The notes: generated by a model from the letters alone, not told the origin. 28,870 nt of DNA from Balneolales bacterium (GCA_035267005.1 DATFMK010000207.1:1-28870); one strand, 5' to 3'. Numbered from the stretch's first letter, positions 1,615 through 19,174 are shown. Program-made: numbers and translations.

Positions 1615-1975
1615 TTAATATCAATAAGTTTCTAAAAGAAACAACTGTACAGATTGGAAGCACATCAATAATATGTAATAGATGGGACACTAACTTATTA
1701 TTCGAATCTGGGCATGTGAATGTGTTTCTGGAATAGCTGATACCATATTAGATCCTTATTGCAGCATATACCAGATGTACTAAACCTGGCTGATTCGTCC
1801 CGGTTTCAGATGTGTATTAAAAACAATATCGTATAATACAGTGATAGTCTAAAAACAGCCGGCTCATGAATTTGTTTGATTTGGGAATAGGACTGTCTTT
1901 TTCATAATCTGCTTTGGTAATTTTCCCTGAAATTTCTGTTATTTAAAACTAAATCCTCAGTAACCATGAAAAATT

Positions 1976-3631
1976 ATGAAAAAAATAGTCACCGTTTCGC
2001 TTGTTACAGTTTTAATATCCATAACGTTTTCCACTTCTAAAGCTCAAAATCATCAAACATATGATGTCGTAGTTTACGGCGGCACTTCGGCAGGTGTAAT
2101 GGCGGCGGTGGCGGCTAAAAGAATGGGGGCATCTGTAATCCTCCTTAGCCCTGAAAAACGAATTGGTGGAATAACCAGTGGCGGATTAAGCTGGACCGAC
2201 ATCGGGGATCAAATTCATCATAGAACCATTGGCGGCTATACGTTGAATTTTTTTCATCGTGTTTATCAATATTACCGTCACAAAAAAGCATGGGATCAGG
2301 AAACCAGGGCTGATTATCGTAAGGAAATCGAAACTACGGATCACAAAATAATGGATAAAGACAGTCTGATGTGGACTTTCGAACCCCATGTGGCTCTTAA
2401 GATCTTCAATGATTTAATTCATGAAAACAACATCCCCGTACGGCTTAACAGATGGCTTGATCGTAAACATGGAATCAGGAAAGTTGATGGTCGCATCGTT
2501 TCCATCACCATGCAGAACGGCGAAACTTATAGTGGGAAAGTATTCATTGATGCAACCTACGAAGGAGACTTGATGGCTGTTGCCGGTGTGTCCTATACAG
2601 TTGGACGGGAAGATAACCGGGAATATCATGAAACGATTGATGGCGTGCAGCTTTCGCATCACCATCAGTTTCCGGATGGTATTGATCCGTATCGTATACC
2701 GGGCAATCCATCCAGTGGTCTTCTTTGGGGTATTAGCTCCGATTCCTTATTACCAGAAGGTCATGGTGATAAAAGAGTACAAGCCTATAATTTCAGGGTT
2801 TGCCTAACGGATTATAAAGAAAACATGATTCCCATAACCCGGCCAAAAAACTATGATTCATCCAGATACGATCTGCTCATCCGGCTGATCCATGCACAAC
2901 CCAATAAAAGGAAGCTAAGCGATTATTTTATATGGAGTCCATTGCCAAACAAGAAAACCGATATTAATAACAACGGGGGGTTTTCAACGGATATGATTGG
3001 TATGAGCAACGCATGGCCGGAGGGTAGTTATACAAAAAGACGCGATATTTTTAAGTCTCATATGGCTTATACAAAAGGTTTATTGTATTTCATGGGACAT
3101 GACCGGCGCGTTCCCGATACATTGCGGCACCAGATGCTCAGATGGGGTTACCCAAAAGACGAATATCAGAAATCCGATCATTTTACTCCCGAACTGTATG
3201 TCCGTGAGGGCAGGCGTATGATTGGTGATTATGTGATGACAGAGCATAATTGCAGGGGCTCAGTAACGGTAAATGATGGTATTGCAATGGCATATTATAA
3301 CATGGACAGTCACAATTGCGAACGAATCGTAGTGAACGGAATGGTGAAAAATGAAGGAAATGTAGAAGCCGGAATACCACACCCGTATCCTATCTCATAC
3401 CGCGCGATAATACCCAAAAAGAAAGAGTGCACTAACTTATTGGTACCTGTATCTCTGTCGGCCACGCATATCGCATATGGATCCATACGAATGGAGCCCG
3501 TATTCATGATGCTGGGCCAGTCTTCTGGTACTGCTGCCGCTCTCGCAGCAAAAAACAAAGTAGCCGTTCAGAAATTAGACTATCCGAAATTAAAGAAACA
3601 GCTATTGAAAGACGGTCAGATTCTGAAATAA
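1976..3631 (+). CDS. Secreted FAD-dependent oxidoreductase (FAD_oxidored / xanthan-lyase-associated type)
   Basis: Signal peptide; DVVVYGGTSAG dinucleotide motif; FIDATYEGDL; RVQAYNFRVCLT; SATHIAYGSIRMEPVFM. Confidence 0.88.
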   Translation: MKKIVTVSLVTVLISITFSTSKAQNHQTYDVVVYGGTSAGVMAAVAAKRMGASVILLSPEKRIGGITSGGLSWTDIGDQIHHRTIGGYTLNFFHRVYQYYRHKKAWDQETRADYRKEIETTDHKIMDKDSLMWTFEPHVALKIFNDLIHENNIPVRLNRWLDRKHGIRKVDGRIVSITMQNGETYSGKVFIDATYEGDLMAVAGVSYTVGREDNREYHETIDGVQLSHHHQFPDGIDPYRIPGNPSSGLLWGISSDSLLPEGHGDKRVQAYNFRVCLTDYKENMIPITRPKNYDSSRYDLLIRLIHAQPNKRKLSDYFIWSPLPNKKTDINNNGGFSTDMIGMSNAWPEGSYTKRRDIFKSHMAYTKGLLYFMGHDRRVPDTLRHQMLRWGYPKDEYQKSDHFTPELYVREGRRMIGDYVMTEHNCRGSVTVNDGIAMAYYNMDSHNCERIVVNGMVKNEGNVEAGIPHPYPISYRAIIPKKKECTNLLVPVSLSATHIAYGSIRMEPVFMMLGQSSGTAAALAAKNKVAVQKLDYPKLKKQLLKDGQILK

Positions 3632-5269: not shown

Positions 5270-5770
5270 AAATCTTCGTAACGGTGCTTTTTTAAAATCT
5301 GTATCTCACCATTTCGTGCACAAAATATCACCCTCCACAATCAACCTGATACACTCAATGTTGATATCCTTAAAGCATTCGATCATCGCCAAAAGATACG
5401 AAATTATCAAATGATGACATTGCGACTATTCTTTGGGCTGCCAGCGGTGTCAACCGTCCGGACGGTAAACGTACAGCCCCGGCCACTCACGGGATGCAGT
5501 ATAACAATATTTATGTTGCGGACTATGAAGGCAATTATTTTTATGATGCCATTAATAACAGGCTGGCGTTGAGAAATAAGGAAATGTCTAAAAATAAATT
5601 ATCCGTACAACATCATGTGGCACAATCTTCTCATGTTATTATCATTACGGCTGATCTGAACCGTGTTCCGGGATTGATGTCAAACCGGGAGGCCAAACTT
5701 AAATGGGCAAATGTAACTGCCGGAACGATCGCGCAAAATATTTACCTGATGTGTGCGGATTTGCATTCGT
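5266..5770 (+). pseudogene. SagB-type nitroreductase, frameshifted and 3'-truncated
   Basis: ATG overlaps the upstream stop (ATGA). Three frames together read MKIFVTVLF / CISPFRAQNITLHNQPDTLNVDILKAFDHRQKIRNY / LSNDDIATILWAASGVNRPDGKRTAPA...AGTIAQNIYLMCAD, then similarity stops. Confidence 0.8.
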
Positions 5771-5789
5771 TCGGAGTCAATATCTTTTA

Positions 5790-6592
5790 TTCTCAAATTC
5801 GAAAGTTCCCTACCCTTAAAAAGGCAGAATAGAATTACAGTAAAGGGACAAGAAGAACAAAATGGCACTTTAGAAATCCTACTACATCGTAAAGATATCA
5901 GAATTGAAATACGAAACGATAAATTTACATTTGAAAGAAGCGGATATCCTGCAAGTAATTTGAGTGAGGGTGAAAAGTCCGCAATTGCTTTTGCTTATTT
6001 TTTAACTGAACTAAAATCATTAGGAAATGATAATCCTCCAAAATTGCCAAATACAATAGTTTTTATTGACGACCCAATTTCTAGTTTGGATAGTAATCAT
6101 ATTTTTCAGGTTAGACTTTTGGGTAGAATAGATAAATCTACCAATGAGGCTAAACGTCCATTATTTTTCATTAAACGAAATGACGATAATAGTGCAATAA
6201 TTAAAAAATTACCAAAATCATTTAGTTCATACAAATCTGAATATATTGGACTATTTCACACCATTAAAGAATTGGATGAATTAGAAGATAAAGAAGATTA
6301 TCCTAATTTATTAATTCTACCAAATGCAGTTCGTAGGTTTCTTGAATTATCCACTTTAATGAAATATCCAAGTGATACATAAGTTGATAATTGAGTAAAA
6401 AAAGTTTTTAATCAGGATGATAAACCATTTTACAATACTAAATTACTACACTGGTTTTCACACCAAAATCAATTTGAAAAAGTACAACAACACGACGACA
6501 AAATATTACAAATAGAAGATGCTATAAAAGAATTAATGGAACATATTAAATCAAAGGATGAATTACATTTGAAAGGACTAAATGTAGAATAG
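5790..6592 (+). pseudogene. C-terminal fragment of an AAA_13 / RloC-like ABC-ATPase-HEPN protein
   Basis: NLSEGEKSAIAFAYF (ABC signature), IVFIDDPISSLDSNH (Walker B/D-loop), NAVRRFLE and KLLHWFSH (HEPN-like). No Walker A or N-terminus; in-frame stops at 6380-6382 and 6392-6394; final TAG at 6590-6592. 5' boundary approximate. Confidence 0.78.
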
Positions 6593-6608: not shown

Positions 6609-6740
6609 ACCTAACATTTTGTATAAGTAATGGCAGGTAATGTGTTAAATATCAAGGTTTTTAGGCCACTAAAACTGATTAACGGTTTGACAGGAAAGTA
6701 CCACGCAATCTGCCACTACTCATACAATTTACCTTTAGCA
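6609..6740 (+). repeat. attC-like imperfect palindrome A (132 bp)
   Basis: Left core ACCTAAC 17 bp after the stop codon. Arms TTGTATAAGTAATGGCAG / CTGCCACTACTCATACAA pair at 16 of 18 positions. Right core is TTTAGCA(GT) instead of GTT... Confidence 0.7.
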
Positions 6741-6768
6741 GTCACCCCAAAACACAACTATAAAATTT

Positions 6769-8727
6769 ATGCGCAAATCTGATACAAATAGAGTCGTTTT
6801 TTACTCAAAAGAAGATATGGCGGGCGGACATCAACTTCAAAAGGGTGAGCATATTTTAAGAGCCAAAACCAAAACTAGTTACACTGACATCAATGACATT
6901 CTAGAGCTTTATAACATAAAAAAATACATTGACAATGAGTTATTTTTAAAAGTTTGGTCTAATGAAGACATTCTAAGCTTTAAACAGAAAGTCATAGAAT
7001 ATGGAAAAATTGTCGGGAGATTTATGTCAAATATTAATGACAGCAATGCTGTTGACATATATGATAACACCCTTCATGACTATATTAATTCATTTTGGGA
7101 ATTAGTTAGCAATCAAAGTGTATTTAAGCGAATATCAAAAGACAATTTTAAAAACATTTTATTCCATGAACCTCACCTAATTTATACAATTCTAAATCAT
7201 AAGAATATCGTTGAATACTACAATAATGAAGTAAAAGATTTTTTATTGACATATTCTCAGTCTGCAGAAATATTACTTTCTGTTTACGAAGTGAAAGAAG
7301 AATTTGCAAAGAATAAGAGATTCATTCCCAAAAGCCTGACAATTGATGACAAGGAAGCCATAATCTCAAGTTATTTAGAATCGAATGATGTGAATTTGAA
7401 TTATGTCGGATTAATTCAAAACATAAGGAACAGAAATGACTTTAAAATTTCTGATAAAACACGTCTTAAAGCTAAGCGTTTACACAAAAGTGAAACGGAG
7501 AAATTTTTCTCAGAAAAAGGTGGAATGAAATATGGAGTTTCAATTAGTTTTCCAGAAAATCCGACAAAAATTAAAGATGGTTTTGTTGACGAAAATCTCT
7601 TGGCTCATTATTCGTACAGTTTAGACTTCATCAAACAAAACAACAACCCATATTTGTTATTTCAGAATTTCAAGTATTTATTCGAATATCTCGACAATCA
7701 AAACAGAGTAAATCTTGTAAGCAAAAGAAGTCAACTCGGTTTATTTGAAAGGATTATGGGTGTTCAATCCCAGAACGAATATAGAGGTGGAACGAGCTTT
7801 TCATTATCTGAAATGACATCTCAAAGTCAAATAATAGGATACAATAAAGTACTGAGTGAATTAGGTACTTCATTGGAAGATATTCTGCACTTTGTTTTTA
7901 CAATTGCATTTCAAGAAAAATTTTCGTTTGCCAAAAATGCAAGGTTTTCGATTCCTACAGCAACTTCATACTTTGAAAAAGTTAGACTTTTAGCACCTGA
8001 ATTTGAATCTGCATTAAAGCAATTTAAACTATTTGTTGAAGATGGAAGTATTGATTTTGAACTTTTACAAATATCATCTTCTCCATCAGCGATAAAGGAT
8101 ATCCCAAGTCTAAATCATAATAAATACATCTATTTTAATGAAGATAATGAAGAGATAGTAGGATGTTCTAATTTATTCTTCTCTGACCAAACTCTTCTAG
8201 AATATGTTGAACCATTCAAAGAAGAAAAGTATCATACATTCTTCAATTTATTAGCAAATGAAAAAGTAAAGTTTACTAATTATGAAGAGCATCAAAAACC
8301 ACGATTGAATTATCTTATAGAAAAAGGGTTTATCTCCATAGATACTGATGATTTTATCAACATCACAAATCTTGAAAGAGTTTTAATCTTAAAAGATTTG
8401 TACGATAATGAGGTAGGTTCATTCTATCATTATTCATCTGATTTTCAACAAGAAGTTCAGCGAATGAATGATGAAAACATTGTTGATTTTGAGATTTCGT
8501 TATTTTCAAAACCTGAACAAGCATATTTTAATTACTTCTTGAACAAGAGTGAGTTTACTAATGGTTTGGATTTAAGGAATAGTTACTTGCATGGGACTCA
8601 AGCAAACCCTGAAGAAATTCAAACACACGAGTATGCTTATTTTACATATTTAAAATTAATATTCTTAGCATTTTTGAAAATAGATGATGATTTAAACATT
8701 CACAATGCGACAAGAAATAAAACATAA
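6769..8727 (+). CDS. Uncharacterised 652-aa protein with C-terminal HEPN-like RxxxxH motif (putative RNase / defence effector)
   Basis: Intact AT-rich ORF. GLDLRNSYLHGTQ (R603-H608) followed by a hydrophobic helix, resembling DUF4209-type HEPN domains. No signal peptide. Confidence 0.7.
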   Translation: MRKSDTNRVVFYSKEDMAGGHQLQKGEHILRAKTKTSYTDINDILELYNIKKYIDNELFLKVWSNEDILSFKQKVIEYGKIVGRFMSNINDSNAVDIYDNTLHDYINSFWELVSNQSVFKRISKDNFKNILFHEPHLIYTILNHKNIVEYYNNEVKDFLLTYSQSAEILLSVYEVKEEFAKNKRFIPKSLTIDDKEAIISSYLESNDVNLNYVGLIQNIRNRNDFKISDKTRLKAKRLHKSETEKFFSEKGGMKYGVSISFPENPTKIKDGFVDENLLAHYSYSLDFIKQNNNPYLLFQNFKYLFEYLDNQNRVNLVSKRSQLGLFERIMGVQSQNEYRGGTSFSLSEMTSQSQIIGYNKVLSELGTSLEDILHFVFTIAFQEKFSFAKNARFSIPTATSYFEKVRLLAPEFESALKQFKLFVEDGSIDFELLQISSSPSAIKDIPSLNHNKYIYFNEDNEEIVGCSNLFFSDQTLLEYVEPFKEEKYHTFFNLLANEKVKFTNYEEHQKPRLNYLIEKGFISIDTDDFINITNLERVLILKDLYDNEVGSFYHYSSDFQQEVQRMNDENIVDFEISLFSKPEQAYFNYFLNKSEFTNGLDLRNSYLHGTQANPEEIQTHEYAYFTYLKLIFLAFLKIDDDLNIHNATRNKT

Positions 8728-8736
8728 AAGGCAAAC

Positions 8737-8803
8737 TACTAACAATGTGAATAGTGCATAGCACCCTGCGGGATGCTACGACACCATACACGGAACGTTA
8801 TTC
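8737..8803 (+). repeat. attC-like imperfect palindrome B (67 bp)
   Basis: TACTAAC 10 bp after the stop codon. Arms GTGAATAGTGCATAGCA / TGCTACGACACCATACAC with bulges around loop CCCTGCGGGA. Right core GTTATTC. Confidence 0.7.
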
Positions 8804-8946
8804 ACAATAGCTCCAAAAAAGACCAACGCTCAAAAGATTATATTTGATTTTCTACCAGCGTACAGCAAACACATTTGCAAGTAACTTTTCCCACCCGCAC
8901 TTTCGTGTTGATAACGTTCCTGAGATTTATCTATGAAAAGGGAATG

Positions 8947-8954
8947 TAAATTTG
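8947..8954 (+). promoter_or_regulatory. Bacteroidota-type -7 promoter box TAAATTTG
   Basis: Matches TAnnTTTG, 16 bp upstream of the XRE start. Confidence 0.55.
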
Positions 8955-8958
8955 TATT

Positions 8959-8979
8959 TTTGGACAAAATATGTCCAAA
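8959..8979. promoter_or_regulatory. Putative operator TTTGGACA-N5-TGTCCAAA
   Basis: Perfect 8-bp inverted repeat lying between the -7 box and the start of the XRE gene, overlapping its ATG. Confidence 0.6.
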
Positions 8980-9306
8980 CAAATTGAATCCAAACAAATG
9001 CTGTCAATAGGAGAACAAATAAGAAAGCTGCGAGAGGACCAGGGGTTGCCTTTACGTAAAGTTGCGGCTGAACTGGACATTGACCAATCTATCTTAAGCA
9101 AGATAGAAAGAGGTGAACGGAAAGCTTCCAAGGAACAGATCATTCATATTGCCAGAATTTTCAAAGTGGACGAGAAAGAGTTACTCATTAATTACTTGAG
9201 CGACCGGGTGCTGTACGATCTGAAAGATGAAGATTTGGCAACAGATGCGTTAAAAGTGGCGGAAAAGAAAATTAAATACCTGATCAAAAGCCAAAATGGA
9301 AAGTAG
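8971..9306 (+). CDS. XRE-family HTH regulator (R-M controller-like)
   Basis: IGEQIRKLREDQGLPLRKVAAELDIDQSILSKIERGER; overlaps the MTase start by 11 bp. Confidence 0.9.
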   Translation: MSKQIESKQMLSIGEQIRKLREDQGLPLRKVAAELDIDQSILSKIERGERKASKEQIIHIARIFKVDEKELLINYLSDRVLYDLKDEDLATDALKVAEKKIKYLIKSQNGK

Positions 9307-10873
9307 AAAATCCATACGACCCATAGAACAAGAGTTACCAAATCATTTTGCTGACCGGTTAGGCGTTGCTTACGCTTCTTTGGTTAGTCAGCAACACAAA
9401 AAGGAAAACGGACAGTTTTTTACTCCGGTTGAAATCGCATCCTTAATGGCTTCCTTCTCTGATTTTGCAGGAAATTCTGTCCGAATTCTTGACCCAGGAT
9501 GTGGTTCCGCGGTTTTATCATGTACTTTGATTGAACACCTCGTCAATTCGAATAAAAAACTAAAAACCATTGAATTGGTGGCTTATGAAACGGATGCAGA
9601 ACTCATTCCTGTTTCAAAACGTTCTCTCGCCTATTTAGAAAAATGGGGAAACCAACAGGGAATCAATCTCAAAACGAAACTTTATACGCATGACTTCATC
9701 CTTCATAATTCCGATTGTTTCAAAGAAACAGACGATTTGTTTTCCAAACCGGTTGAGCAGTTTGATATTGTCATTTCAAACCCTCCTTATTTCAAACTAC
9801 CTATTGATGACAAAAGAGCAAAAGTTGCAAAAGTCATAGTGAATGGTCACCCGAATATTTATGCCATTTTCATGGCTTTATCGGCAAAACTGCTCAAAGA
9901 AAATGGCGAGTTAATTTTCATTACGCCACGCAGCTATGCGGCAGGCGGATATTTCAAAATCTTCCGGGAATATTTCTTCAAAATCATTGATTTGGATAAG
10001 GTGCATCTTTTTGTTTCCCGAAAAGACACTTTTAGCAGAGATAAAGTATTGCAGGAAACGGTTATTATTAAAGGAACCAAAAGATCCAAGCCCGAACCAC
10101 AGGTAACCATTTCTTCATCAAGTGGATTGAAAGACTTAAGAAGCCCGTTGATAAAGATATTCCCGAAAAAAGACATCATAGATCTGAATTCCAATGAGAA
10201 AATTCTCTATCTGCCAACAACCGACTATGATGAAGCTGTGTTGGAAATTTTCAAAAACTGGACAGGTAATTTGGCTAAATACAATATCAAGATTTCAACT
10301 GGTCCTGTAGTAGCTTTCCGGGCAAGGAATTACCTAAGGGAGAATTTTGAGAACGGAACGGTGCAATTAGCCCCACTTTTCTGGCTGCATAATGTGAAAC
10401 AGATGATATTGGAATGGCCAATAGTTAAGCCGAAAAAAGAGCAATACATAAACATTGAGGAAAAGGCCATGCCGCTCCTCATTCCCAACAAAAACTATAT
10501 CCTTTTGAGACGTTTCAGCAGCAAAGATGATAAAAATAGGTTGATTGCTGCTCCATACTTCTGCAATTTCATGAAATCGGATTATATCGGAGTTGAAAAC
10601 AAGGTGAATTACATCTATCGTCCAAATGGACACCTTGAACGAAATGAACTTATTGGGCTTTGTGCATTACTTAACAGCAACTTATTCGACGCGTATTTCA
10701 GGATTTTTAACGGCAATGTTAATGTGAGTGCCACAGAGTTAAGGGAGATGTCACTACCTCCACTGGATACCATTCTGGAAATTGGCGACACAATTATCCT
10801 GGCCAACGATTTTTCTGTGGAAAATATAAACCGAATTGTAAACGAATATTTTGAACCGACATACATTACATGA
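9296..10873 (+). CDS. Type II N6-adenine DNA methyltransferase, BsuBI/PstI type
   Basis: GQFFTP, motif I ILDPGCGS, motif IV NPPY, C-terminal FRIFNGNVNVSATELREM. Confidence 0.92.
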   Translation: MESRKSIRPIEQELPNHFADRLGVAYASLVSQQHKKENGQFFTPVEIASLMASFSDFAGNSVRILDPGCGSAVLSCTLIEHLVNSNKKLKTIELVAYETDAELIPVSKRSLAYLEKWGNQQGINLKTKLYTHDFILHNSDCFKETDDLFSKPVEQFDIVISNPPYFKLPIDDKRAKVAKVIVNGHPNIYAIFMALSAKLLKENGELIFITPRSYAAGGYFKIFREYFFKIIDLDKVHLFVSRKDTFSRDKVLQETVIIKGTKRSKPEPQVTISSSSGLKDLRSPLIKIFPKKDIIDLNSNEKILYLPTTDYDEAVLEIFKNWTGNLAKYNIKISTGPVVAFRARNYLRENFENGTVQLAPLFWLHNVKQMILEWPIVKPKKEQYINIEEKAMPLLIPNKNYILLRRFSSKDDKNRLIAAPYFCNFMKSDYIGVENKVNYIYRPNGHLERNELIGLCALLNSNLFDAYFRIFNGNVNVSATELREMSLPPLDTILEIGDTIILANDFSVENINRIVNEYFEPTYIT

Positions 10874-11829
10874 GTAAAATTGAAGAAGCAAAACAGATAT
10901 TGGAAGCGTTGGGACTTCCAAAAAGGCAGCAAAATGACCGTTCCGCATTGACGTTGCTTGCCTTATGTAACCTGAGAGAAAAGGACAAATGGAGCAAGGC
11001 CAAAGCTGTAAGTATGTCTGTTGTTGGCAATAAAGAAAACGCTAAATATGAGGGCGTGATGCGTTTTATTGCGCAGTTTTACAACAAACCATATGCAGAA
11101 AATTCACGGGAAACATTTCGCAGACAAACGCTTCATCAATTTGTTCAGGCTGGAATTGTAAACCACAATCCGGAAAACCCTGAATTACCAACTAACAGCA
11201 AGGACAATCATTATCGCATTTCACCGGAAGCATTGAAGGTCATCAAAACTTTCAACTCAAGAAACTGGAATAAAGAGATCAAGTACTTCAAAGAAAATGT
11301 GGGATTGTTAAGAGACAAATATCACAAGAAAAGAGAATTACGCAAAATTCCATTGAAGTTGAAAGACGGCACAGAACTTACTTTTTCTCCGGGCAAGCAC
11401 AATGAAGTTCAGATTGCCATTATTGAAGAATTTTCTCCACGCTTTGCTCCCGGAAGTGATTTACTGTATGTTGGAGATACCGCCAAGAAAGATCTATACA
11501 TGGACAAAAAGGGTATGGGAAAACTGGGAATTCCTATTGATGAGCACAGCAAGTTACCAGATGTTGTTCTGTACGACAATAAGAAAAAATGGCTGTTCCT
11601 GATTGAAGCGGTTACTTCACATGGTCCTGTTTCTCCGAAACGGATAGTGGAAATGGAAAAGATGTTGAAAAACTGTAAAGCAGGTAAAATATACGTGACA
11701 GCTTTCCCGGACTTCAAGGAGTTCAAACGCCATACTTCTGACATTGCCTGGGAAACAGAAGTTTGGGTAGTCATATTCCCGGATCACATGATCCATTTTA
11801 ATGGGAATAAATTTATGGGACCGAGATAG
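10870..11829 (+). CDS. BsuBI/PstI-family type II restriction endonuclease
   Basis: ALTLLAL, ENSRETFRRQTLHQF, SPGKHN, KLPDVV...LIEAVTSHGP, IAWETEVW; ATGA overlap with the MTase. Confidence 0.92.
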   Translation: MSKIEEAKQILEALGLPKRQQNDRSALTLLALCNLREKDKWSKAKAVSMSVVGNKENAKYEGVMRFIAQFYNKPYAENSRETFRRQTLHQFVQAGIVNHNPENPELPTNSKDNHYRISPEALKVIKTFNSRNWNKEIKYFKENVGLLRDKYHKKRELRKIPLKLKDGTELTFSPGKHNEVQIAIIEEFSPRFAPGSDLLYVGDTAKKDLYMDKKGMGKLGIPIDEHSKLPDVVLYDNKKKWLFLIEAVTSHGPVSPKRIVEMEKMLKNCKAGKIYVTAFPDFKEFKRHTSDIAWETEVWVVIFPDHMIHFNGNKFMGPR

Positions 11830-12047
11830 AAACCTTCACAAAAACAAATGGCGATCCTGCTAATTGCCTACAATTTTACCGAGTAATAACCCAGCCTAAA
11901 AAAATCATATGTGTATACCCGAGAATTGATGCTATTTTAATTATTTTATCTCGAACTCACGTTAATATTATTAATCTGCCAGCAATTGATACTTTGAAAG
12001 TAGAAATTGATAGTATTGAAAATGCAAAAGTGTTTAACAATATTTAA
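11826..12047 (+). pseudogene. Start-less open frame, possible 3' remnant of a lost gene
   Basis: About 70 sense codons ending ...IDTLKVEIDSIENAKVFNNI*, with a GTTTAAC core overlapping its last codons. No recognisable motif. Confidence 0.3.
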
Positions 12048-12152
12048 TGTCTACCCTGTTTTGCATATGGGCTTACTCGTTACTGTGTGCGCCATAGAGC
12101 GAAACTACCAACACACTGTATTGAGGAAGACAGAAAAAGTAAAACGTTAATA
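12032..12152 (+). repeat. Degenerate attC-like site C
   Basis: GTTTAAC-AAT left core and AAC-GTTAATA right core, in the same context as site B (followed by CCAACGC...CATTTGCAA). Internal arms pair poorly. Confidence 0.35.
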
Positions 12153-12266
12153 TGAAATGCCAACGCACAAAGAAGCACATTTGCAAGCCCTGACACACAA
12201 GCTGATGCTCCAATGCTCCATCTTGCAAAAGAGTTTTTTTCTTGCCTACACGCCACCGAAATTTGA

Positions 12267-12274
12267 TACATTTG
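12267..12274 (+). promoter_or_regulatory. Bacteroidota-type -7 promoter box TACATTTG
   Basis: Matches TAnnTTTG, 23 bp upstream of the SWIM gene start. Confidence 0.5.
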
Positions 12275-12297
12275 TGATTTAATAATAGTTTAACTAA

Positions 12298-13998
12298 ATG
12301 CAAATTCCACTAAACCAGTTTGAGCTGTACATTGACGAAACTATCCTGAAACGCGGCCTGCAATATTTTAAAAACGGGCATGTGCATGAACCTATTGAAA
12401 TAAGCCTGGGCATCTATGAAGCTATTGTTGAGGGCTCTCAAGATTATACGGTGCAACTGACCCTTAAAAATGGGGTAATAACCGAATATATTTGCGATTG
12501 CCCCTACGATTTTGGACCTGTGTGCAAACATGTGGCTGCCGTGATTTTTTACCTGCAACAGGATGAACTGGAATTGAATAAGAAGACTAAAAAAACAAAG
12601 GCTGGTCGAACACCTAAAGCTGCAAAACGAAAAACCATAGCCCAACAGGTTGACGAATTGCTCGAAAAAGCCACCCACGAAGAGCTCAAACAATTTATAA
12701 AGGAAAATACTACACAAAATATCCCGTTCAGGAATTTATTTTTATCCTCGTTTGCACAGCATAATTCCGACGAATCAAAGGAGCTTTATACAAAGCAGGT
12801 AAAATCAATCCTTAAAATGGCTTCCGACAAGCATGGTTTTATAGACTGGTCGGCTTCAAGACTTGTAAGTAATACGGTTTACAACCTTTTAGAATCGGCC
12901 CAAAAACAAATTGAGAATCAAAATTTCAAAAGTGCCTTTTATATCTGCACAGCCGTAATGGAACAGATGGCCAAAGCTCTTCAATATGCAGATGACAGTT
13001 ATGGAAATATTGGCGATTGTGTAGATGCTGCTTATGAAATGTTGCATACTATTGCACTAGAACAAACTACAGAAGAAATCAGGAAGTTAATCATTGAATA
13101 TTGTTTCACAGCTTTTGATAAACAAATATACTCGGATTGGGATTGGCATATTGGTGTTTTACGGCTTGCTTCCCTTCTTTTAAAAACAGAAGACGAAACG
13201 GAACGTATTTTTGACCAAATTGAAAAGGCCCAAAGGTCGGACTACGAGAGAGAAGAAGCCCAAAGTATTAAGTACGAAATTTTATTAAAAACCAAAGGGG
13301 AAAATGCTGCTGAAAAATATCTTGAACAAAATATTACCAATTCGAATTTAAGGCGGGAAGCCATAAAAAAATCACTGGAGAAGAAGAATTACGAGAAAGC
13401 TATTTCGATAGCAAAAGATGGGATAAATTATGATAAAAAAGACAAGCCTGGGTTAGTAATAGAATGGTATTATTGGCTACTTAAAATTGCACAAGCCCAG
13501 AACAATACTGATAAAATAATCGAATATGCCCGTTTTTTATTTATCAACAATTTCAGGCATGAACAGGATTATTATGAAATATTAAAGCAACATGTGAAAC
13601 CCGAAAAATGGGTTGCGTTTTTAGAAGATGTTATACAAGATATTACTGCAAAAAAACGTTGGCTCGATACTGGTTTGATAGCAGATATTTTTATTAAAGA
13701 AGAATGGTGGGACAGACTTTTAGAATTGGTTAAAAAATCTCCCAATTTATACACCATTGACCATTACGAAAAATATCTTTCTAAGAAATATCCAAATGAG
13801 ATAGTGGAATTATATGCCGATGGCATTACAGGATATTTAAAAAACAGCGTGGGGCGAAAACATTACCAAAATGCGTGCAGGTATATTAGAAAGATTATAA
13901 AACTGGGTGCAAGAGATAAAGCAAATGAAATTATTTCCTATTTAAGGACTGAATATCCTAAAAGGAAAGCATTAATGGATGAGCTGAACAAGGTATAA
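12298..13998 (+). CDS. SWIM zinc-finger protein with long helical (TPR-like) C-terminus
   Basis: CDCPYDFGPVCKH (CxC...CxH) preceded by KRGLQYF...YEAIVEGSQDYTV. Confidence 0.85.
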   Translation: MQIPLNQFELYIDETILKRGLQYFKNGHVHEPIEISLGIYEAIVEGSQDYTVQLTLKNGVITEYICDCPYDFGPVCKHVAAVIFYLQQDELELNKKTKKTKAGRTPKAAKRKTIAQQVDELLEKATHEELKQFIKENTTQNIPFRNLFLSSFAQHNSDESKELYTKQVKSILKMASDKHGFIDWSASRLVSNTVYNLLESAQKQIENQNFKSAFYICTAVMEQMAKALQYADDSYGNIGDCVDAAYEMLHTIALEQTTEEIRKLIIEYCFTAFDKQIYSDWDWHIGVLRLASLLLKTEDETERIFDQIEKAQRSDYEREEAQSIKYEILLKTKGENAAEKYLEQNITNSNLRREAIKKSLEKKNYEKAISIAKDGINYDKKDKPGLVIEWYYWLLKIAQAQNNTDKIIEYARFLFINNFRHEQDYYEILKQHVKPEKWVAFLEDVIQDITAKKRWLDTGLIADIFIKEEWWDRLLELVKKSPNLYTIDHYEKYLSKKYPNEIVELYADGITGYLKNSVGRKHYQNACRYIRKIIKLGARDKANEIISYLRTEYPKRKALMDELNKV

Positions 13999-14158
13999 GT
14001 CGCTAATACTTATATCCGCGCATTTGGTGGCGCATTTGCAATTCCTAAGAGCTAACGCTAAAGCAAAAATTGCAAAAGAGACCCAAAACCAACACACGGC
14101 AGACAGAAACGATATTGCAAATTGATATGAAAAATGATGGAAAATAAACAACGCCAGC

Positions 14159-14289
14159 CCATAACATTGTATTAATGTAATAGCGAGTTAGAGCTTAAAT
14201 AATTAATGAAGTGCCTAAAATAAATATTGCATTATAGCTGAAACTTAGATGTAGAAATTCGCTACTTCTTATATACGAGACCGTTACGC
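14159..14289 (+). repeat. attC-like imperfect palindrome D (131 bp)
   Basis: Left core CCATAAC; arms GTATTAATGTAATAGCGAGT / ATTCGCTACTTCTTATATAC; right core GTTACGC. Same length and layout as site A. Confidence 0.68.
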
Positions 14290-14348
14290 ACCCCAGCAAC
14301 AAGCACATTAATGGGACTAACCCTAACGCTTTCGGGCATGAATCCGAC

Positions 14349-14428
14349 ACCTATCTTGTGCGTAAGGGTTTAATTAAGTTGACAATCGTTGTTCGTATCT
14401 TAGCCCCTTATGCGCAGGATCGTTATAA
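14349..14428 (+). repeat. attC-like imperfect palindrome E (80 bp)
   Basis: Left core ACCTATC (ACCTAAC with one change); arms TGTGCGTAAGGG / CCCTTATGCGCA pair at 10 of 12; right core GTTATAA. Confidence 0.55.
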
Positions 14429-14575: not shown

Positions 14576-15124
14576 ATGAAAACGAGACAATCTATTACAT
14601 CAATCCTGCTCATTTTTTGTTTTGTTATTGCTTCAAGCATGACTGTGGATGCGCAAAAACGCCGTGAACGGCCATCACGGTATAAAAATATGCCTCGCAT
14701 CGGAAACAGGGTTACGCATGTCCCGCGTAGTTCTTATAGAATCCCTTATAAGAAAACCATCTATCATTATCATTCTGGTATATTTTATCGGCCTTATAAT
14801 CGCTTTTTTATTATTGTAAACGCACCTATCGGTATCAGGATACGTACACTTCCGCTCCATCATTACAGAGTGATCATCGGAACACATCTTTATTATTATG
14901 ATTATGGAAATTTCTACGTTCAAAAAGCCAATTATTATGAGTCGGTAGTACCACCATTGGGAGCCCGTGTTGAAGAACTTCCCGCTGGTTATTATAAGAT
15001 TGTTATAGAAAGCAAAACATATTACGAGCTCAATGGAGTGTACTACAAAGCGGTTGTGGATGATAAAGGTGAAGTCTGGTACGAGGTCGTGGGAATCAAT
15101 CATGATATGATAAATGATCAATAA
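14576..15124 (+). CDS. Secreted DUF6515-like protein
   Basis: Signal peptide; Tyr-rich repeats YHYHSGIFY...APIG / YYYDYGNFY...PPLGARVEELP. Confidence 0.7.
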   Translation: MKTRQSITSILLIFCFVIASSMTVDAQKRRERPSRYKNMPRIGNRVTHVPRSSYRIPYKKTIYHYHSGIFYRPYNRFFIIVNAPIGIRIRTLPLHHYRVIIGTHLYYYDYGNFYVQKANYYESVVPPLGARVEELPAGYYKIVIESKTYYELNGVYYKAVVDDKGEVWYEVVGINHDMINDQ

Positions 15125-15334
15125 CAGCCTGCCAAATTTATCAGATTTGTGTAATAGGTACCGGACATAATTCAGAAGTTAGAATAAACACCTTTGGCAT
15201 GGTGATACTCTTATGCCAATAATCAAATTGCTTCACATATTTTAAATTCTAAAGGATTTAAAAGCTGAAAAAAAAACAATTATGGATATTGCAGTGAAAT
15301 ACAGAAACGAACCGTTTAAAGTCAAAGAGGGATT

Positions 15335-16123
15335 GTGCATACGTTATTAGTTTATTTTTTAGGAATCTTATTTACTATAACCGGCTATCATAATGATGTG
15401 GATTCCATACCAAAAACCGATAGCCTGCAGTTTAAGACGATTGTTTTTTCACGATCAGCCCGGGATTGTCAAAAATGTAATATTGAGATGAAGTTCAGTT
15501 ATCCCCAAATAACCGGGGCCGGGAATTCGGGGATAAGAGATTCTCTGAATAATAGAATTCAAAGATATGTTTTAAGATCTGTTTATAGAGGGATTAAAGT
15601 ATCGGATCCCCGTCAGATCTATGGACATTTAGTGCAAGAATACGATTCATTAATTAAAATATTCCCTGATTATCCTCATCATAAATGGTACCTGAATCGA
15701 ACAGTTAAAATCATTTCTCACACATCTACCTATATCAGTTTAGAAATGGAGGAAAATGTTTTTACCGGTGGCGCACATCCTCTGAGTACGCGGAATTACG
15801 AAACCTTTAATGAAAATACGGGACAAAAATTAAGCCTTCATGGTATCATAAAAACGGGTATGATGGATACTCTGCTTTCTATTTCAGAACGAATCTTTAG
15901 GGAAACACGATCGTTATCGCCTGATACTTCTCTTAAAAAAGCTGGTTTCTGGTTTAAAAATGGCCAATTTCATCTAAACAATAACTTTGCCATCACGTCT
16001 AAAGAAGTCATTTTTTATTTTAATCCTTACGAAATTGCTCCCTATGCATGGGGCCCCACCCTGCTCAAAATTCCCCGAAATAAGTTAAAAGATATCGTAA
16101 CTGCACCATTTAATGCCAATTAA
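15335..16123 (+). CDS. DUF4163/DUF3298 (PdaC/RsiV-like) exported protein
   Basis: GTG start; FTGGAHP and FYFNPYEIAPYAWG motifs. Confidence 0.8.
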   Translation: MHTLLVYFLGILFTITGYHNDVDSIPKTDSLQFKTIVFSRSARDCQKCNIEMKFSYPQITGAGNSGIRDSLNNRIQRYVLRSVYRGIKVSDPRQIYGHLVQEYDSLIKIFPDYPHHKWYLNRTVKIISHTSTYISLEMEENVFTGGAHPLSTRNYETFNENTGQKLSLHGIIKTGMMDTLLSISERIFRETRSLSPDTSLKKAGFWFKNGQFHLNNNFAITSKEVIFYFNPYEIAPYAWGPTLLKIPRNKLKDIVTAPFNAN

Positions 16124-16217
16124 ATACTCCTGGCCGACGGCATACTTTACCTTTTTGATTAGTTTAAATCAGACTATTTTAACTCGACAACCGAACGTAA
16201 TTTAAAAGCGGATTTTC

Positions 16218-16505
16218 ATGGAACCATTAATTAAGCGCAGCTGGGTAATCGACAGTATTGTTATTATCGTCACAGCATTTCTTTTGTCCTATATTTACAT
16301 ATATAATGCTCAACATTTTGTACTCAAATTCCTATTAATCTTTTTGCTCATTTACTACTTTTTCGGTAAATCCGCTCAAAAGTACATTGATAAAAAGAAC
16401 CGGGAAGATAAAGAGAAAAGAGAAATGGATATGGATACGAAAGTAGAGGATGAAACAGAAAATGAAATGGATCCCGATTCAAAAGAAGTTAAGAAGGATA
16501 ATTAA
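16218..16505 (+). CDS. Small membrane protein with acidic tail
   Basis: Two hydrophobic segments followed by a charged C-terminus. Confidence 0.6.
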   Translation: MEPLIKRSWVIDSIVIIVTAFLLSYIYIYNAQHFVLKFLLIFLLIYYFFGKSAQKYIDKKNREDKEKREMDMDTKVEDETENEMDPDSKEVKKDN

Positions 16506-16521
16506 TCTTATATAGTCTGAA

Positions 16522-16983
16522 ATGAACGAGACAACGCGTATTGATAACCTATTGTTACAAACAATGAATGGGGACGCATGGCACGGCCCTGCAGTTTTTG
16601 AGCTTTTAAGAGACATCCCGGCAGAAAAAGCTGCTTTTCATCCGGTTGAGGATGTTCACAGTATTTGGGAATTAGTAGAGCACATGACCACGTGGCAAAA
16701 AGTGATCATCAGGCGTATGAACGACGAAGATTATGAACCTTCAGATGAGGAAAACTTTCCGGATGTGACTGCTGATTCGTCCGATACCTGGGAAAAGGCG
16801 GTTGAAGAACTATACCGGACCTATCAGGCTTTAAGAGAAAAAATCATACATTTTCCGGATGAAAAACTCGGGGAAGCTGTACCCGGGAAACATTATACTC
16901 ACTATATACAGTTACACGGTTTAATTCAACATAATTTATACCACGCCGGACAAATCGCTATCCTGAAGAAGAATATAATGTAA
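16522..16983 (+). CDS. DinB/YfiT-like four-helix protein
   Basis: AWHGPA, HSIWELVEHM, HNLYHAGQI (three-His metal site). Confidence 0.88.
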   Translation: MNETTRIDNLLLQTMNGDAWHGPAVFELLRDIPAEKAAFHPVEDVHSIWELVEHMTTWQKVIIRRMNDEDYEPSDEENFPDVTADSSDTWEKAVEELYRTYQALREKIIHFPDEKLGEAVPGKHYTHYIQLHGLIQHNLYHAGQIAILKKNIM

Positions 16984-16988
16984 CATCT

Positions 16989-17037
16989 CAGTTAGCAGTT
17001 AGCAGTTAGCAGTTAGCAGTTAGCAGTTAGCAGTTAG
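16989..17037. repeat. Perfect heptamer tandem repeat (CAGTTAG)x7
   Basis: Counted directly; begins 5 bp after the DinB stop. Confidence 0.97.
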
Positions 17038-17106
17038 CAAAGATGTCGTGCCTGATACCCGCTGTCAAAGGGAAAGTGACTTTCTACCGGTCTTAATAAG
17101 TTATGA

Positions 17107-17143
17107 TTCACCTTTAACGATATACTATTTCGTTAAGGGTGAA
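17107..17143. other. 14-bp inverted repeat (hairpin/terminator or operator)
   Basis: TTCACCTTTAACGA-N9-TCGTTAAGGGTGAA with one G-T pair. Confidence 0.5.
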
Positions 17144-17253
17144 ATATTCATTGGTCACTGTAAATTGCCTTTGTGCCTTATAATATTATTACTCTGATTT
17201 TATTATATTTAATTGTACTTGGTAAAGTTTATTTATAATATTCGACTATAATA

Positions 17254-17457
17254 ATGAGATTATTACGTGTATTTGTACTGATTGTTTTAATAGCTGTTCC
17301 TGTTATATTGATATCAATATTCGGGAAGGATTATATGATTCATAGTCTTTCCGTTATAAATTGGTATGTGACTATTCCTTTGGGGATTCTATTTGGAATA
17401 GTTGCTGCAACGTTTAAAGGTCGTATTGCCCGAAATTCTGCTTCCGAAAACGATTAA
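17254..17457 (+). CDS. Small hypothetical membrane protein
   Basis: 67 aa with two hydrophobic helices. Confidence 0.55.
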   Translation: MRLLRVFVLIVLIAVPVILISIFGKDYMIHSLSVINWYVTIPLGILFGIVAATFKGRIARNSASEND

Positions 17458-17499
17458 TTAATTGCCGGTTATTAATTGAAAGATAAAGTGGGGTAGCAC

Positions 17500-17877
17500 A
17501 TGGAATATCAAAATATAAAACCAATTACAATCATCCGTTGGCTCGCACGTATAACCGCGGCCTTCTTCTTCATCTTTATCCTGGCGTTCGCTATTGAACA
17601 AAAAGTGGACCCGTTTTCCATGGGATCTCATGAACTGACTTTAACAATTTCATTTTCCGTAATGTGGCTGGGATTTATCATAGCAATATTCAGGGAAGGC
17701 GTTGGCGGTCTTTTGATTATAGCCGGAATTTTATCTTTTTACCTCTTCAGTTTTATTTTTTCAGGATTCCTGCCACAAGGATTACCACTCTTCGTGTTAA
17801 TAAGTCCGGGTGTTTTATTCACCATTGTCTGGTTACATGACAAATACGGTAACAACAGAAGCCTGGCTAAAATTTAA
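17500..17877 (+). CDS. Hypothetical four-helix membrane protein
   Basis: IIRWLARI...REGVGGLLII...SPGVLF; four hydrophobic segments. Confidence 0.7.
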   Translation: MEYQNIKPITIIRWLARITAAFFFIFILAFAIEQKVDPFSMGSHELTLTISFSVMWLGFIIAIFREGVGGLLIIAGILSFYLFSFIFSGFLPQGLPLFVLISPGVLFTIVWLHDKYGNNRSLAKI

Positions 17878-18107
17878 CTGTTCAATCAAATCTACTGACC
17901 ATTTATTATAGATCCTCTCATTTTTCGATATGGATTGGATATAGTGCATTTTACTATACTCAGTAATTATTTTCGGTATATACCGTTCGTTCGATTATAA
18001 TTATATGTTTTTCCAGTCTCCATTTCTTACAAGCGAACGTTATATTCATTCAATTCATTTTATAAACAGTCAATAAACAGTAATCGAAAAACTATTACCC
18101 AAGTATT

Positions 18108-19106
18108 ATGAAATATCGTTTTTTAGGATCATCAGGACTAAAAGTATCTGCATTATCATACGGAGCATGGGTCACATTCGGAGATCAGATTGGTGAAGAT
18201 GTTGCTTATGAATCTATGAAAAGAGCTTATGATGCCGGAGTCAACTTTTTTGATAATGCGGAAGCCTATTCTTCAGGTACCGCTGAAAAAATGATGGGGA
18301 ATATTATAAAAAAAACCGGCTGGAAAAGATCCGGCCTGGTCGTGTCCACAAAAATCTTTTGGGGTGGCAATGGACCAAACGATCGCGGTTTGTCACGCAA
18401 ACATATTATTGAAGGAACAAATGCTTCATTGAAACGTTTGCAATTGGATTATGTGGACTTGATTTTCTGTCATCGCCCGGATAAACATACTCCGATTGAA
18501 GAAACCGTACGAGCCATGGATCATGTAATCAATCAGGGAAAGGCTTTGTACTGGGGAACGAGCGAATGGAGCGCCGAGCAGATTCGTCAGGCTTATGAAA
18601 TTGCCCGCCGCGAACATCTTATAACACCTACCATGGAACAATCGCAGTATAACATGCTGCACAGAGAGAAACTGGAAAAAGAATTTACACGATTGTATGA
18701 TGAAATCGGCTTGGGAACTACCATTTTTAGTCCTTTGGCCAGCGGTTTATTGACCGGAAAATATAATGACGGAATACCGAAAGACAGCCGGGCATCGCTT
18801 GATAAATATGAATGGCTGCGGGAACGATTTGAAAGTGAAGAAGGACGTAAAAAAATTGAAAAGGTAAGAAGGTTACAACCTATCGCCGACGATCTGGGTG
18901 CCTCCATGGCACAAATGGCCATAGCATGGTGCCTGAAAAACAAAAATGTCAGTACGGTTATTACCGGTGCTTCCAGACCGGAACAGGTTGATCAGAATAT
19001 GAAAGCAATGGATGTAGTCGATCAACTAACACCCGATGTTATGGAGCGTATTGAAGATGCACTGGACAACAAACCCAAACCGGTATTCGATTTTCGCAAT
19101 TTATGA
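18108..19106 (+). CDS. Aldo/keto reductase, Kv-beta-like subfamily
   Basis: [55 protein letters not shown]. Confidence 0.93.
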
Positions 19107-19142
19107 TAACATAAAGATACCGGAGAAGTTTATTACAGTAAA

Positions 19143-19174
19143 CAAAGGGATGTTTTTAACAGAACTTCCCTTTG
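19143..19174 (+). terminator. Possible terminator hairpin after the aldo/keto reductase gene
   Basis: CAAAGGGA ... TCCCTTTG stem with a weak T tail. Confidence 0.35.

Follow-up and report, generated by a model that had tools for sequence, protein, structure and literature searches.

Between positions 6609 and 14428 of a 28,870-nt stretch of DNA (hereafter the window; contig C207 of assembly GCA_035267005.1), imperfect palindromes alternate with genes resembling phage defence systems. A sequence-only reading had proposed six palindromes forming an integron-like cassette array without a visible integrase, in a genome of the FCB group. Are these palindromes integron recombination sites and, if so, which enzyme do they belong to? 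The genome is a metagenome-assembled genome (MAG) of 1,035 contigs, and its order is probably Balneolales. The features discussed below are as follows.

5725-5833, minus strand: relic of a rec2 gene (residues ~130-166 of 280), ~110 nt, at the head of the array
5837-6592, plus strand: 5'-truncated pseudogene of an AAA_13/PDC-S06 (RloC/PrrC-like) defence ATPase (Pfam, PADLOC)
6609-6740, plus strand: attC site A, R1 class
6769-8727, plus strand: PDC-S56, 652-aa candidate defence protein (PADLOC)
8737-8803, plus strand: attC site B, short R1 class
8971-11829, plus strand: operon of an XRE controller, an N6-adenine methyltransferase and a BsuBI/PstI-type restriction endonuclease (Pfam, PADLOC)
12298-13998, plus strand: SWIM/DUF6880 protein, 566 aa, role not assigned (Pfam)
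14002-14158, plus strand: non-coding stretch holding a "collapsed site" of the sequence-only reading; not an attC
14159-14289, plus strand: attC site D, R1 class
14294-14428, plus strand: attC site E, class of the canonical IntI-linked arrays

Four Palindromes Are Integron-Type Sites

A covariance model was trained on 20 homologous sites from other genomes, with no window sequence included. We named it R1, like the class of sites to which A, B, and D belong. Over the whole window and both strands, it gives exactly three significant matches, all in the same orientation: site A (132 nt; 104 bits, E 5e-30), site B (67 nt; 43 bits, E 3e-11), and site D (131 nt; 55 bits, E 1e-14). The class is present in 67 of the 121 sampled genomes of the same order. 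Site E is of another kind. It matches over its full length (model positions 5-118) a profile of 14 attC sites from the IntI-linked array of a relative (nhmmer E 1e-7, computed against the whole 5.36-Mb genome), and it resembles more than 40 sites in relatives' IntI-linked arrays, with 76-85% identity. This palindrome had been correctly recognized but placed at 14349-14428, which is only its inner part. The complete site starts 4 nt past site D, carries no cargo, and has CAGCAAC as R'', GTTATAA as R', and two substitutions in L''.

The two remaining palindromes are not supported as attC sites. At 12032-12152, the R1 model scores 7.3 bits (E 4.3) and the fold is no better than that of shuffled sequences (z +0.28); this is at most a relic keeping ..TTTAAC and GTTAATA cores 121 nt apart. 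The region at about 14002-14061, which includes the palindrome proposed at 14002-14033, is instead the conserved 3' non-coding part of the unit encoding the SWIM protein, common to the copy on contigs C170 and C209. It is followed by a conserved pre-attC segment (14033-14158) that recurs upstream of an R1 site in a relative's genome, G075; the genes preceding it there and in the window encode unrelated proteins.

The triplets of both cores, R''..AAC and GTT..R', are present in B (TACTAAC and GTTATTC), D (CCATAAC and GTTACGC), and E. The exception is site A: its R'' is ACCTAAC, and its R' has a mutated crossover triplet, reading TTTAGCA where GTT... is expected. Over 25 aligned sites, AAC and TT show little or no variation. 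Four homologues of site A (two in G005, one each in G066 and G019; 82-90% identity) have GTT at R' and unrelated flanks. Site B has five homologues (81-95% identity, unrelated flanks, a paired T..A insertion), and homologues of site D are known in G097, G110, and G028. The L-box stem of site D is decayed, with 6 of 18 model pairs broken, and its minimum-energy fold lacks the long hairpin, whereas A and B retain the stem. As the homologues bear canonical GTTRRRY-like cores, the deviant cores of A and D reflect decay of these copies and not a trait of the family. A distinct site family, suspected earlier from these cores, does exist as the R1 class, but the deviant cores do not define it.

The R1 stem covaries. 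Among the 20 sites from outside the window, analysed with RNAalifold and pair counts, 96% of the cells are paired and 11 of the 18 pairs show compensatory changes on both sides; none of 500 shuffles equalled the observed pairing, and slid controls reached at most 47%. Folding energy alone fails to set the sites apart from the background, whereas homology and covariation do. The bottom strand folds slightly better than the top one in 13 of the 20 sites (p 0.03), and on this strand the R and L boxes of all R1 sites are separated by an unpaired spacer (R' side, 5-6 nt; R'' side, 3 nt). In attC sites, IntI uses its I2 helix to dock extrahelical bases located near L'' (PMC5027507, PMC7790495). In our model-based reading, the class of site E has a single extra base within L'', and the B-type site has one on the L' arm instead. 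The A/D-type stems run through 16 bp without a bulge; two G.T wobbles, spaced by 4 nt, are conserved in them (18/20 and 19/20 sequences).

The arrangement of the sites is also that of cassettes. As had been noticed, the four supported sites share the plus orientation with all intervening genes, and sites A and B start shortly after a stop codon (17 and 10 nt, respectively). Arrays with a single orientation are also found in G005 (contig C48), G044 (C7), and G048 (C44). In relatives' genomes and in soil-metagenome contigs, the similarity between copies of a site ends at the R'' and R' cores, beyond which they adjoin unrelated flanks; the loose ends of the metagenome contigs map to 6613, 6733-6737, 8740-8741, 8801, and 14425-14426. 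Four public runs, available as contigs only, showed no joints, and no circles or excision junctions were seen. Judged by their sequence, all four sites are genuine recombination sites of the integron type, forming an attC-type cassette array in an FCB-group genome.

Defence Genes as Cargo

PDC-S56 and site B form a 2,063-bp cassette (6741-8803). Its protein matches PADLOC PDLC05039 over the full length (E 4e-244) and has no Pfam or NCBIfam match. Upstream of site A, the ATPase pseudogene contains two in-frame stops near 6380-6395; it aligns with positions 484-547 of the 713 of Pfam AAA_13 and, from profile position ~465 on, with PADLOC PDC-S06 (E 5e-37). The segment from B to D, with four genes over 5.5 kb, is too long for a typical cassette. 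Within it, the restriction-modification (R-M) operon alone (8955-11822) is common to G049 (79% identity) and G010 (69%), where attC profile searches of the fetched flanks found no site. The MAG contains the SWIM unit (12255-14061) twice, the other copy being 96% identical on C170 and 88% on C209, and the boundaries of the unit do not coincide with attC cores. An unrelated dispersed genomic repeat lies at 11943-11966.

The cargo is anti-phage, as previously proposed, with the candidate PDC-S56, a type II R-M pair with its own controller, and a dead PDC-S06/PrrC-like ATPase, alongside the SWIM protein. For the IntI integrons of Pseudomonadota, cassettes have been described as anti-phage "biobanks" made up of small, streamlined systems (Darracq et al. 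2024, preprint, 10.1101/2024.07.02.601686). The window similarly carries restriction-modification and single-gene systems as cassettes, but its units are large, at 2.1 kb and with as much as 5.5 kb from one site to the next, its host belongs to the FCB group, and its sites are mostly of another class.

R1 Sites Are Linked to a Recombinase Lacking I2

In relatives, R1 sites are tied to a 280-aa tyrosine recombinase that we call Rec2. It is related to IntI and Xer, carries all the catalytic motifs, and is devoid of I2, the IntI-specific insertion thought to define integron integrases. Against TIGR02249, it scores ~200 bits for a cut-off of 265, with profile positions 178-239 missing, and its KDR and HxLRH motifs are separated by 58 residues versus 100 in the IntI of the same genome as the window. 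Rec2 forms a separate clade (support 99/100), the housekeeping Xer proteins being on a distinct branch (100/99). IntI is regarded as most closely related to the Xer proteins (PMC7790495), and Rec2 resembles Xer recombinases, such as those exploited by IMEX and dif mimics, by its size, its catalytic motifs, and the lack of I2. It differs from them by its separate branch, its presence in only 37 of 121 genomes, and its location beside cassette arrays and not dif.

Of 19 informative Rec2 loci, 16 have R1 matches, 29 in total, and every one is located 5' of the gene with an identical strand sign; all matches in G048 follow this pattern. In a more remote Rec2-like clade (G019, G007), the layout is co-oriented instead of divergent. 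R1 sites occur in 33 of the 37 Rec2-positive genomes (odds ratio 12) and are less strongly associated with IntI (odds ratio 2.3), both statistics ignoring phylogeny. The 187 kb of Rec2-linked DNA contain 20 matches to the A/B/D profiles and none of the IntI-array class; conversely, the 97 kb of IntI-linked DNA contain 72 matches of the IntI-array class and none to the A/B/D profiles. Just upstream of the Rec2 start codon lies a conserved attI-like site of ~85 nt, whose conserved/variable boundary falls at an AAC/GTT triplet. From these linkages, R1 sites are not the usual partners of the canonical IntI of the genome. Nevertheless, R1 sites are occasionally found in IntI-linked or mixed arrays (G001, locus L014, 6258-6389; G000, contig C233; and the window, where E follows D), and IntI may therefore also act on R1.

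The statement that no integrase is visible holds for IntI, as TIGR02249 has no match on C207, but a relic of Rec2 is visible. With Rec2 of G048 as query, tblastn aligns a short run of 28 aa, 61% identical, to the minus strand between 5808 and 5725. At the DNA level, the relic is 74-81% identical to stretches inside the rec2 genes of G001, G004, G080, G112, and G098, every match placing it on the minus strand, and metagenome contigs part from the window exactly at 5833. It sits at the place and on the strand expected for a Rec2 platform, of which the recombinase is reduced here to these ~110 nt. The attI-like profile has no match on C207; it does match contigs C685, C233, and C364 of the same MAG, where the block comes with broken Rec2 starts, indicating other dead platforms. 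Contig C990 carries the 3' half of a rec2 copy and C814, unlinked to the window, a canonical IntI (266 bits with TIGR02249 for half a protein, insertion present). As the genome is a MAG, the association of C990 and C814 with C207 rests on binning. The earlier suggestion of a non-canonical recombinase is supported by the relatives' Rec2 loci. We found no paper describing I2-less integron-like arrays.

A Proposed Decayed Platform and Its Alternatives

We propose, with a probability of about 0.7, that the window is a decayed, integrase-dead non-canonical integron platform loaded with defence genes, whose R1 sites are tied to the I2-less Rec2. In the intact system of relatives, Rec2 is transcribed divergently from a cassette array beginning at the adjacent attI-like site. 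Each cassette ends in an R1 site made of an AAC core, a short unpaired spacer, a covarying stem of ~16 bp, a variable loop, and a GTT core. By analogy with integrons, we infer that Rec2 is the enzyme paired with R1, that the folded bottom strand is the one cut and exchanged at the AAC triplet, and that cassettes exit as circles, to be reinserted at the attI-like site. In the window copy, Rec2 is cut down to its relic, deletion has removed the attI-like site along with the 5' portion of the first cassette, the crossover G of site A is lost, the stem of site D is eroded, and the array is closed by a canonical IntI-class site. With these losses, the array is frozen for the most part; Rec2 (C990) or IntI (C814) might at most mobilize, in trans, the cassettes between B, D, and E.

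This platform is like sedentary chromosomal integrons, for example, the Vibrio superintegron with its IntI, attI, and attC, in that the array is headed by an insertion site and a tyrosine recombinase transcribed divergently, and in that its co-oriented cassettes end in imperfect palindromes. These have a variable loop, an unpaired spacer, and cores of the RYYYAAC...GTTRRRY type. In both, homology among copies ends at the cores, and site E truly belongs to the attC class of an integron of this kind from the same bacterial family. The platform differs in the recombinase tied to A, B, and D, which is devoid of I2 and below the TIGR02249 cut-off, in the continuous A/D-type stems with G.T wobbles in place of extrahelical bases, and in being dead in the window.

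An ordinary CALIN, in which A, B, D, and E would all be canonical IntI substrates, split by rearrangement or off-target insertion from a large IntI integron, with Rec2 as a bystander, seems unlikely to us. IntegronFinder defines a CALIN as a cluster lacking IntI in which two or more attC sites of the same strand are spaced by less than 4 kb. Applied to our model and profile matches, this spacing holds for A and B (2.0 kb) and for the adjacent D and E; B and D being 5.4 kb apart, the default rule yields two clusters, A+B and D+E. As in described CALINs, the attC sequences are heterogeneous, the cassettes are unlike those of mobile integrons, and IntI is encoded elsewhere in the genome, a situation well known for CALINs (PMC4889954). 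In this MAG, a true IntI accompanies ~55 attC sites spread over more than 20 short contigs, 63 of the 121 genomes of the order have IntI, site E belongs to the IntI-array class, and R1 sites occur within one IntI-linked array (G001) and in mixed arrays. However, site classes split cleanly between IntI-linked and Rec2-linked DNA, the orientation-locked adjacency of R1 to Rec2 and the attI-like site recurs across genomes, the array is headed by a relic of its own non-IntI recombinase, and the A/D-type stems lack the landmark docked by the I2 helix (PMC7790495). A distinct family with a non-canonical recombinase therefore holds better than the plain CALIN reading first proposed.

Rec2 could also belong, as integrase, to a mobile element such as a genomic island, one that merely tends to adjoin cassette clusters assembled by another process. 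This would accommodate the 34 sampled genomes with R1 sites and no Rec2 (19 of R1-bearing genomes lacking both Rec2 and IntI), a SWIM unit moving with boundaries away from attC cores, and an R-M operon found elsewhere without attC matches in the fetched flanks. We consider it improbable, given that distance and orientation are fixed, with 0.4-6 kb separating the Rec2 start from the first R1 site and a constant sign, that the conserved block upstream of Rec2 stops at the same AAC triplet that bounds cassettes, and that the platform is conserved while cassette content differs between genomes. Finally, transcription terminators or REP/MITE-like repeats, compatible with palindromes that follow stop codons, with unremarkable folding energies, and with a genome that does contain a dispersed repeat, are scarcely credible for sequences with no T-run behind them, with invariant AAC/GTT cores at both ends where homology breaks sharply, arranged in one-orientation arrays beside recombinase genes, and including a homologue of IntI-adjoining attC sites.

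Two Integron Systems in One Lineage?

Returning to the decayed Rec2 platform, a broader proposal, to which we give even odds, is that Balneolales-type bacteria run two parallel integron systems per genome. One would combine the canonical IntI with an attC class of its own; the other would combine the I2-less Rec2 with hairpin sites in which conserved G.T mispairs replace extrahelical bases. Mixed arrays and "double sites" joining R1 and the IntI class suggest that cassettes are occasionally exchanged between the two. If this is true, Rec2 would be either a living relative of the integron-integrase ancestor that preceded the acquisition of I2 or an independent solution to the recombination of single-stranded hairpins, and the window would be one fossil of the Rec2 system.

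Cross-Genome Evidence for Two Classes of attC Sites

The source MAG comprises 1,035 contigs (5.36 Mb, 38% GC), and the window is contig C207 complete. From 5.8 to 14.4 kb, GC drops to about 30–38%, and the genes between the sites all lie on the plus strand, as stated in the sequence-only reading. The palindromes that this reading took for integron-like sites are visible, but their inverted-repeat complementarity is merely 71–76% and their folding energies are ordinary. An energy-only attC scan, in which AAC...GTT pairs were folded with constrained cores, did not raise the real sites above background. As folding energies and the hairpin scan were uninformative, the case for the sites had to rest on cross-genome comparison. 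Within the window, no Rfam family was matched. A single covariance model (CM) for all site classes was dropped because MAFFT mis-registered the L boxes of both classes in the joint alignment; the class of sites A, B, and D, named R1, was therefore searched by CM and the class found in IntI-linked arrays by an nhmmer profile. The features discussed here are the following.

5741–5835, minus strand: relic of a recombinase gene (Rec2)
6609–6740: site A, class R1
8737–8803: site B, class R1
14159–14289: site D, class R1
14294–14428: site E, class of IntI-linked arrays

Sites A, B, and D have no relatives elsewhere in the MAG and have homologues in other genomes of the order. Similarity to these starts at the ...AAC core and stops at GTT..., the flanks being unrelated; in place of the TTT of site A, the homologues have the canonical GTT. 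Further R1 copies form co-oriented clusters in two relatives (G005:C48 and G044:C7). In a bottom-strand alignment of 20 non-window R1 sites, the stem shows 96% pairing, compensatory changes in 11 of 18 pairs (as many were reached in 0 of 500 shuffles), and two conserved G.T wobbles. The CM built from these 20 sites recovers palindromes A, D, and B with 104, 55, and 43 bits, respectively, and nothing else significant in the window. Two degenerate palindromes proposed earlier lack support: the one at 12032–12152 scores 7.3 bits and is not supported as an attC, and the "collapsed" site behind the SWIM gene (about 14002–14033) is conserved 3′ non-coding sequence. Contigs from four soil metagenomes follow the window and then part from it, precisely at position 5833 and at the cores of sites A, B, and E; none of their alternative flanks is present in the MAG. 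At contig level, these data listed neither excision circles nor deletion joints. Altogether, R1 sites were identified in 67 of the 121 sampled genomes of the order, and 25 of these 67 are devoid of IntI. Just upstream of D, a non-coding segment of ~125 nt (14033–14158) is 72–77% identical to about 1440–1570 of locus L064 (G075:C11), where, in another family, it precedes an R1 site and follows an unrelated gene. It may represent a conserved pre-attC module.

Site E belongs with canonical integrons. In the relative G001, an array of about 18 attC repeats, each roughly 120 nt long, follows the IntI gene; their cores read YCTAAC...GTTAGGC and their L boxes covary. A profile made from 14 of them detects about 55 copies in the MAG, spread over >20 short contigs, and one full-length match in the window (14298–14425), a stretch 76–85% identical to >40 sites in relatives' arrays. 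Site E is thus real, but the bounds first given to it (14349–14428) are wrong, since the profile match and the array sites of relatives point to a longer stretch, 14294–14428. At the edge of contig C814, the MAG carries a true IntI fragment (TIGR02249, 266 bits, profile positions 141–314) with the IntI-specific insertion. Full IntI genes are present in five of six family relatives, and IntI in 63 of the 121 sampled genomes.

A Divergent Tyrosine Recombinase Is Linked to R1 Arrays

The sequence-only reading had proposed that an unlinked or non-canonical tyrosine recombinase might serve the sites. In several R1-positive genomes without IntI, the best TIGR02249 matches are sub-threshold (about 200 bits) and lack profile positions 178–239. 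These 280-aa proteins, the Rec2 recombinases, are encoded next to R1 arrays. The spacing from KDR to HxLRH is 58 residues in Rec2 and 100 in the IntI of the MAG. Phylogenetically, Rec2 forms its own clade (99/100 support), apart from IntI (100/99) and from housekeeping Xer-like genes. The main clade, 68–82% identical to the query from genome G048, was found in about 25 sampled genomes, and 37 of 121 are positive once a more distant clade is counted.

All 29 R1 matches upstream of Rec2, which come from 16 of 19 informative loci, are on its 5′ side and share the same strand sign. This geometry is the divergent layout of integrons, and the same arrangement is found in G048 with an array of about 19 kb. 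Immediately before the Rec2 start codon lies a conserved block of 85 nt, whose conservation stops at an AAC triplet, the behavior expected of an attI site. The two site classes partition between Rec2-linked and IntI-linked DNA: 187 kb of the former contain no match to the IntI-array class, and 97 kb of the latter contain 72 matches to that class and zero to the A/B/D profile. The odds ratio for co-occurrence with R1 is 12 for Rec2 and 2.3 for IntI, both values ignoring phylogeny. G097 and G066 are examples of genomes with Rec2 as well as IntI.

Other recombinases were encountered. The one encoded on MAG contig C1030 was rejected as Rec2: this separate tyrosine recombinase is more distant (34–38% identity to Rec2) and adjoins no R1 site. 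Two members of a distant Rec2-like clade, at loci L166 (G019:C260) and L167 (G007:C75), show 42–47% identity and N-terminal extensions to 360–417 aa; their R1 sites lie downstream of the gene and are co-oriented with it, which recalls "inverted integrase" integrons. In a Desulfobacterales contig (L136), a minus-strand ORF at 4524 adjoining a canonical IntI encodes a 322-aa tyrosine recombinase, whose long branch is placed as sister to all of IntI (80/87 support).

The Window Carries a Decayed Array

The segment 5741–5835 aligns inside the Rec2 genes of five relatives, whose sense always corresponds to the minus strand of the window, and tblastn places Rec2 residues 139–166 on 5808–5725. An array with its R1 bottom strands on the minus strand would be expected to have its integrase at this place and on this strand. 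A 5′-truncated PDC-S06/AAA_13 pseudogene (PDC-S06 being a PADLOC candidate defence family) starts immediately to its right; a deletion has therefore taken away the 5′ half of Rec2 together with the attI-like site and the beginning of cassette 1. The idea that the nitroreductase gene is interrupted at a GTT core was rejected, as GTTCGG is within the Rec2 relic and the population break is at 5833. Likewise, the block from DUF6515 to AKR was discarded as a conserved distal integron flank, no attC being found near its orthologues in relatives. A comparison with an empty site was rejected, as no relative has the island's two flanks side by side.

Decay also shows in the sites: the crossover G of A is gone, a third of the stem pairs of D are lost, and L″ of E carries two substitutions; B looks intact. 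Three further dead Rec2 platforms were identified in the MAG (contigs C685, C233, and C364), and C990 carries the 3′ half of a Rec2 copy that is possibly intact.

Cassettes and Cargo

Cassettes of the window
Cassette 1: PDC-S06 remnant and site A
Cassette 2: PDC-S56 (a second candidate defence family) and site B, 2,063 bp
Cassette 3: XRE-M-R (controller, methyltransferase, and restriction endonuclease operon), SWIM, and site D, 5.5 kb
Cassette 4: site E alone, without cargo

The 5.5-kb unit is probably composite, because the restriction-modification operon is found on its own in other genomes and the SWIM unit (12255–14061) occurs a second time in the MAG, with non-attC boundaries. Inverted ~55-nt repeats border that copy (C170, 2311–3055, and C209, 1–359; 88–96% identity), whose boundaries lie away from attC cores. 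The R1 clusters of two relatives, L035 (G005:C48, 6074–16100) and L055 (G044:C7), also contain defence or toxin genes: GmrSD, XRE with two D12 methylases, two AbiEii genes (one adjoining a DUF6577 gene), and a PIN protein. These clusters also include one gene of the Pfam family Hfx_Cass5 ("integron cassette protein").

Sites D and E form a "double site," in which only 4–5 nt, and no cargo, separate an R1-class attC from a following attC of the IntI-array class. Three independent cases, each with a different R1 sequence, were observed: window 14283–14300, L014 (G001:C6) 6383–6401, and MAG contig C233 2634–2651, with gaps ACCC, CGCCC, and CGCC, respectively. Ordinary attC × attC exchange does not explain them.

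Some cassettes open with a shared leader after the R′ core (CCAACGC...CACATTTGCAAG; CCAACGC.CA...GCACATTTGCAAG), with copies at 8820–8880 and 12160–12190 of the window, after 1535 in L067, and before 9660 in L055. It was rejected as a general post-R′ motif, being present in just 2–3 of 102 regions downstream of attC sites. Although rare, it exceeds chance by far and may be a promoter of the Bacteroidota type carried by the cassettes.

Other Repeats and Duplications in the Window and MAG

A motif of ~22 nt at 11943–11966 (core ...TTATCTCGAACTCACG...) occurs on >100 MAG contigs in both orientations, frequently in inverted pairs about 200 bp apart and frequently at the ends of contigs. Its appearance is that of a dispersed repeat of the MITE or REP kind. 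A perfect tandem heptamer, GTTAGCA, in about eight copies (16989–17042), follows a DinB-family gene, and identical arrays exist in several relatives. Contigs C655, C771, and C1031 carry a second syntenic set of the window flank genes (1900–3631 and 14576–21755) with 38–86% protein identity, reflecting either two related genomes binned together or large old duplications. On the minus strand at 2–421, a fragment of an IS3-family OrfA-like transposase runs off the left contig end and probably explains the assembly break.

A Probable Integron-Type Platform without I2

Overall, the initial observation was mostly right, and its interpretation is supported and sharpened. CALINs are common (PMC4889954), detection of integrons has been reported for Bacteroidota (PMC8618304), and cassettes with defence genes are among those known from integrons (10.1101/2024.07.02.601686). 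The published view of the I2 helix is that only IntI has it and that it confers single-strand recombination; it is held to have turned a Xer-like recombinase into the integron integrase, via the extrahelical bases of the folded attC (PMC7790495). Rec2 arrays show every architectural part of an integron: recombinase, attI-like site, and hairpins that covary and have AAC and GTT cores. Unlike canonical integrons, however, the enzyme is devoid of I2 and the R1 sites of extrahelical bases. Our literature search found no description of an integron-type platform with an I2-less recombinase. Tools of the IntegronFinder type require the I2 domain for an integron call (PMC4889954); tied to an I2-less enzyme, Rec2 arrays would therefore be listed merely as orphan CALINs.

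Recombination of the sites, the choice of strand, and the pairing of enzyme with site are inferred. If Rec2 is active on R1, the origin of integrons would become directly testable, with a natural I2-less enzyme and a canonical IntI in the same cells. More organisms would then possess gene-capture platforms, and the source of some orphan attC clusters and of their large defence cassettes would be explained. The window itself is a decayed example, showing how such platforms die with their defence cargo frozen in place.
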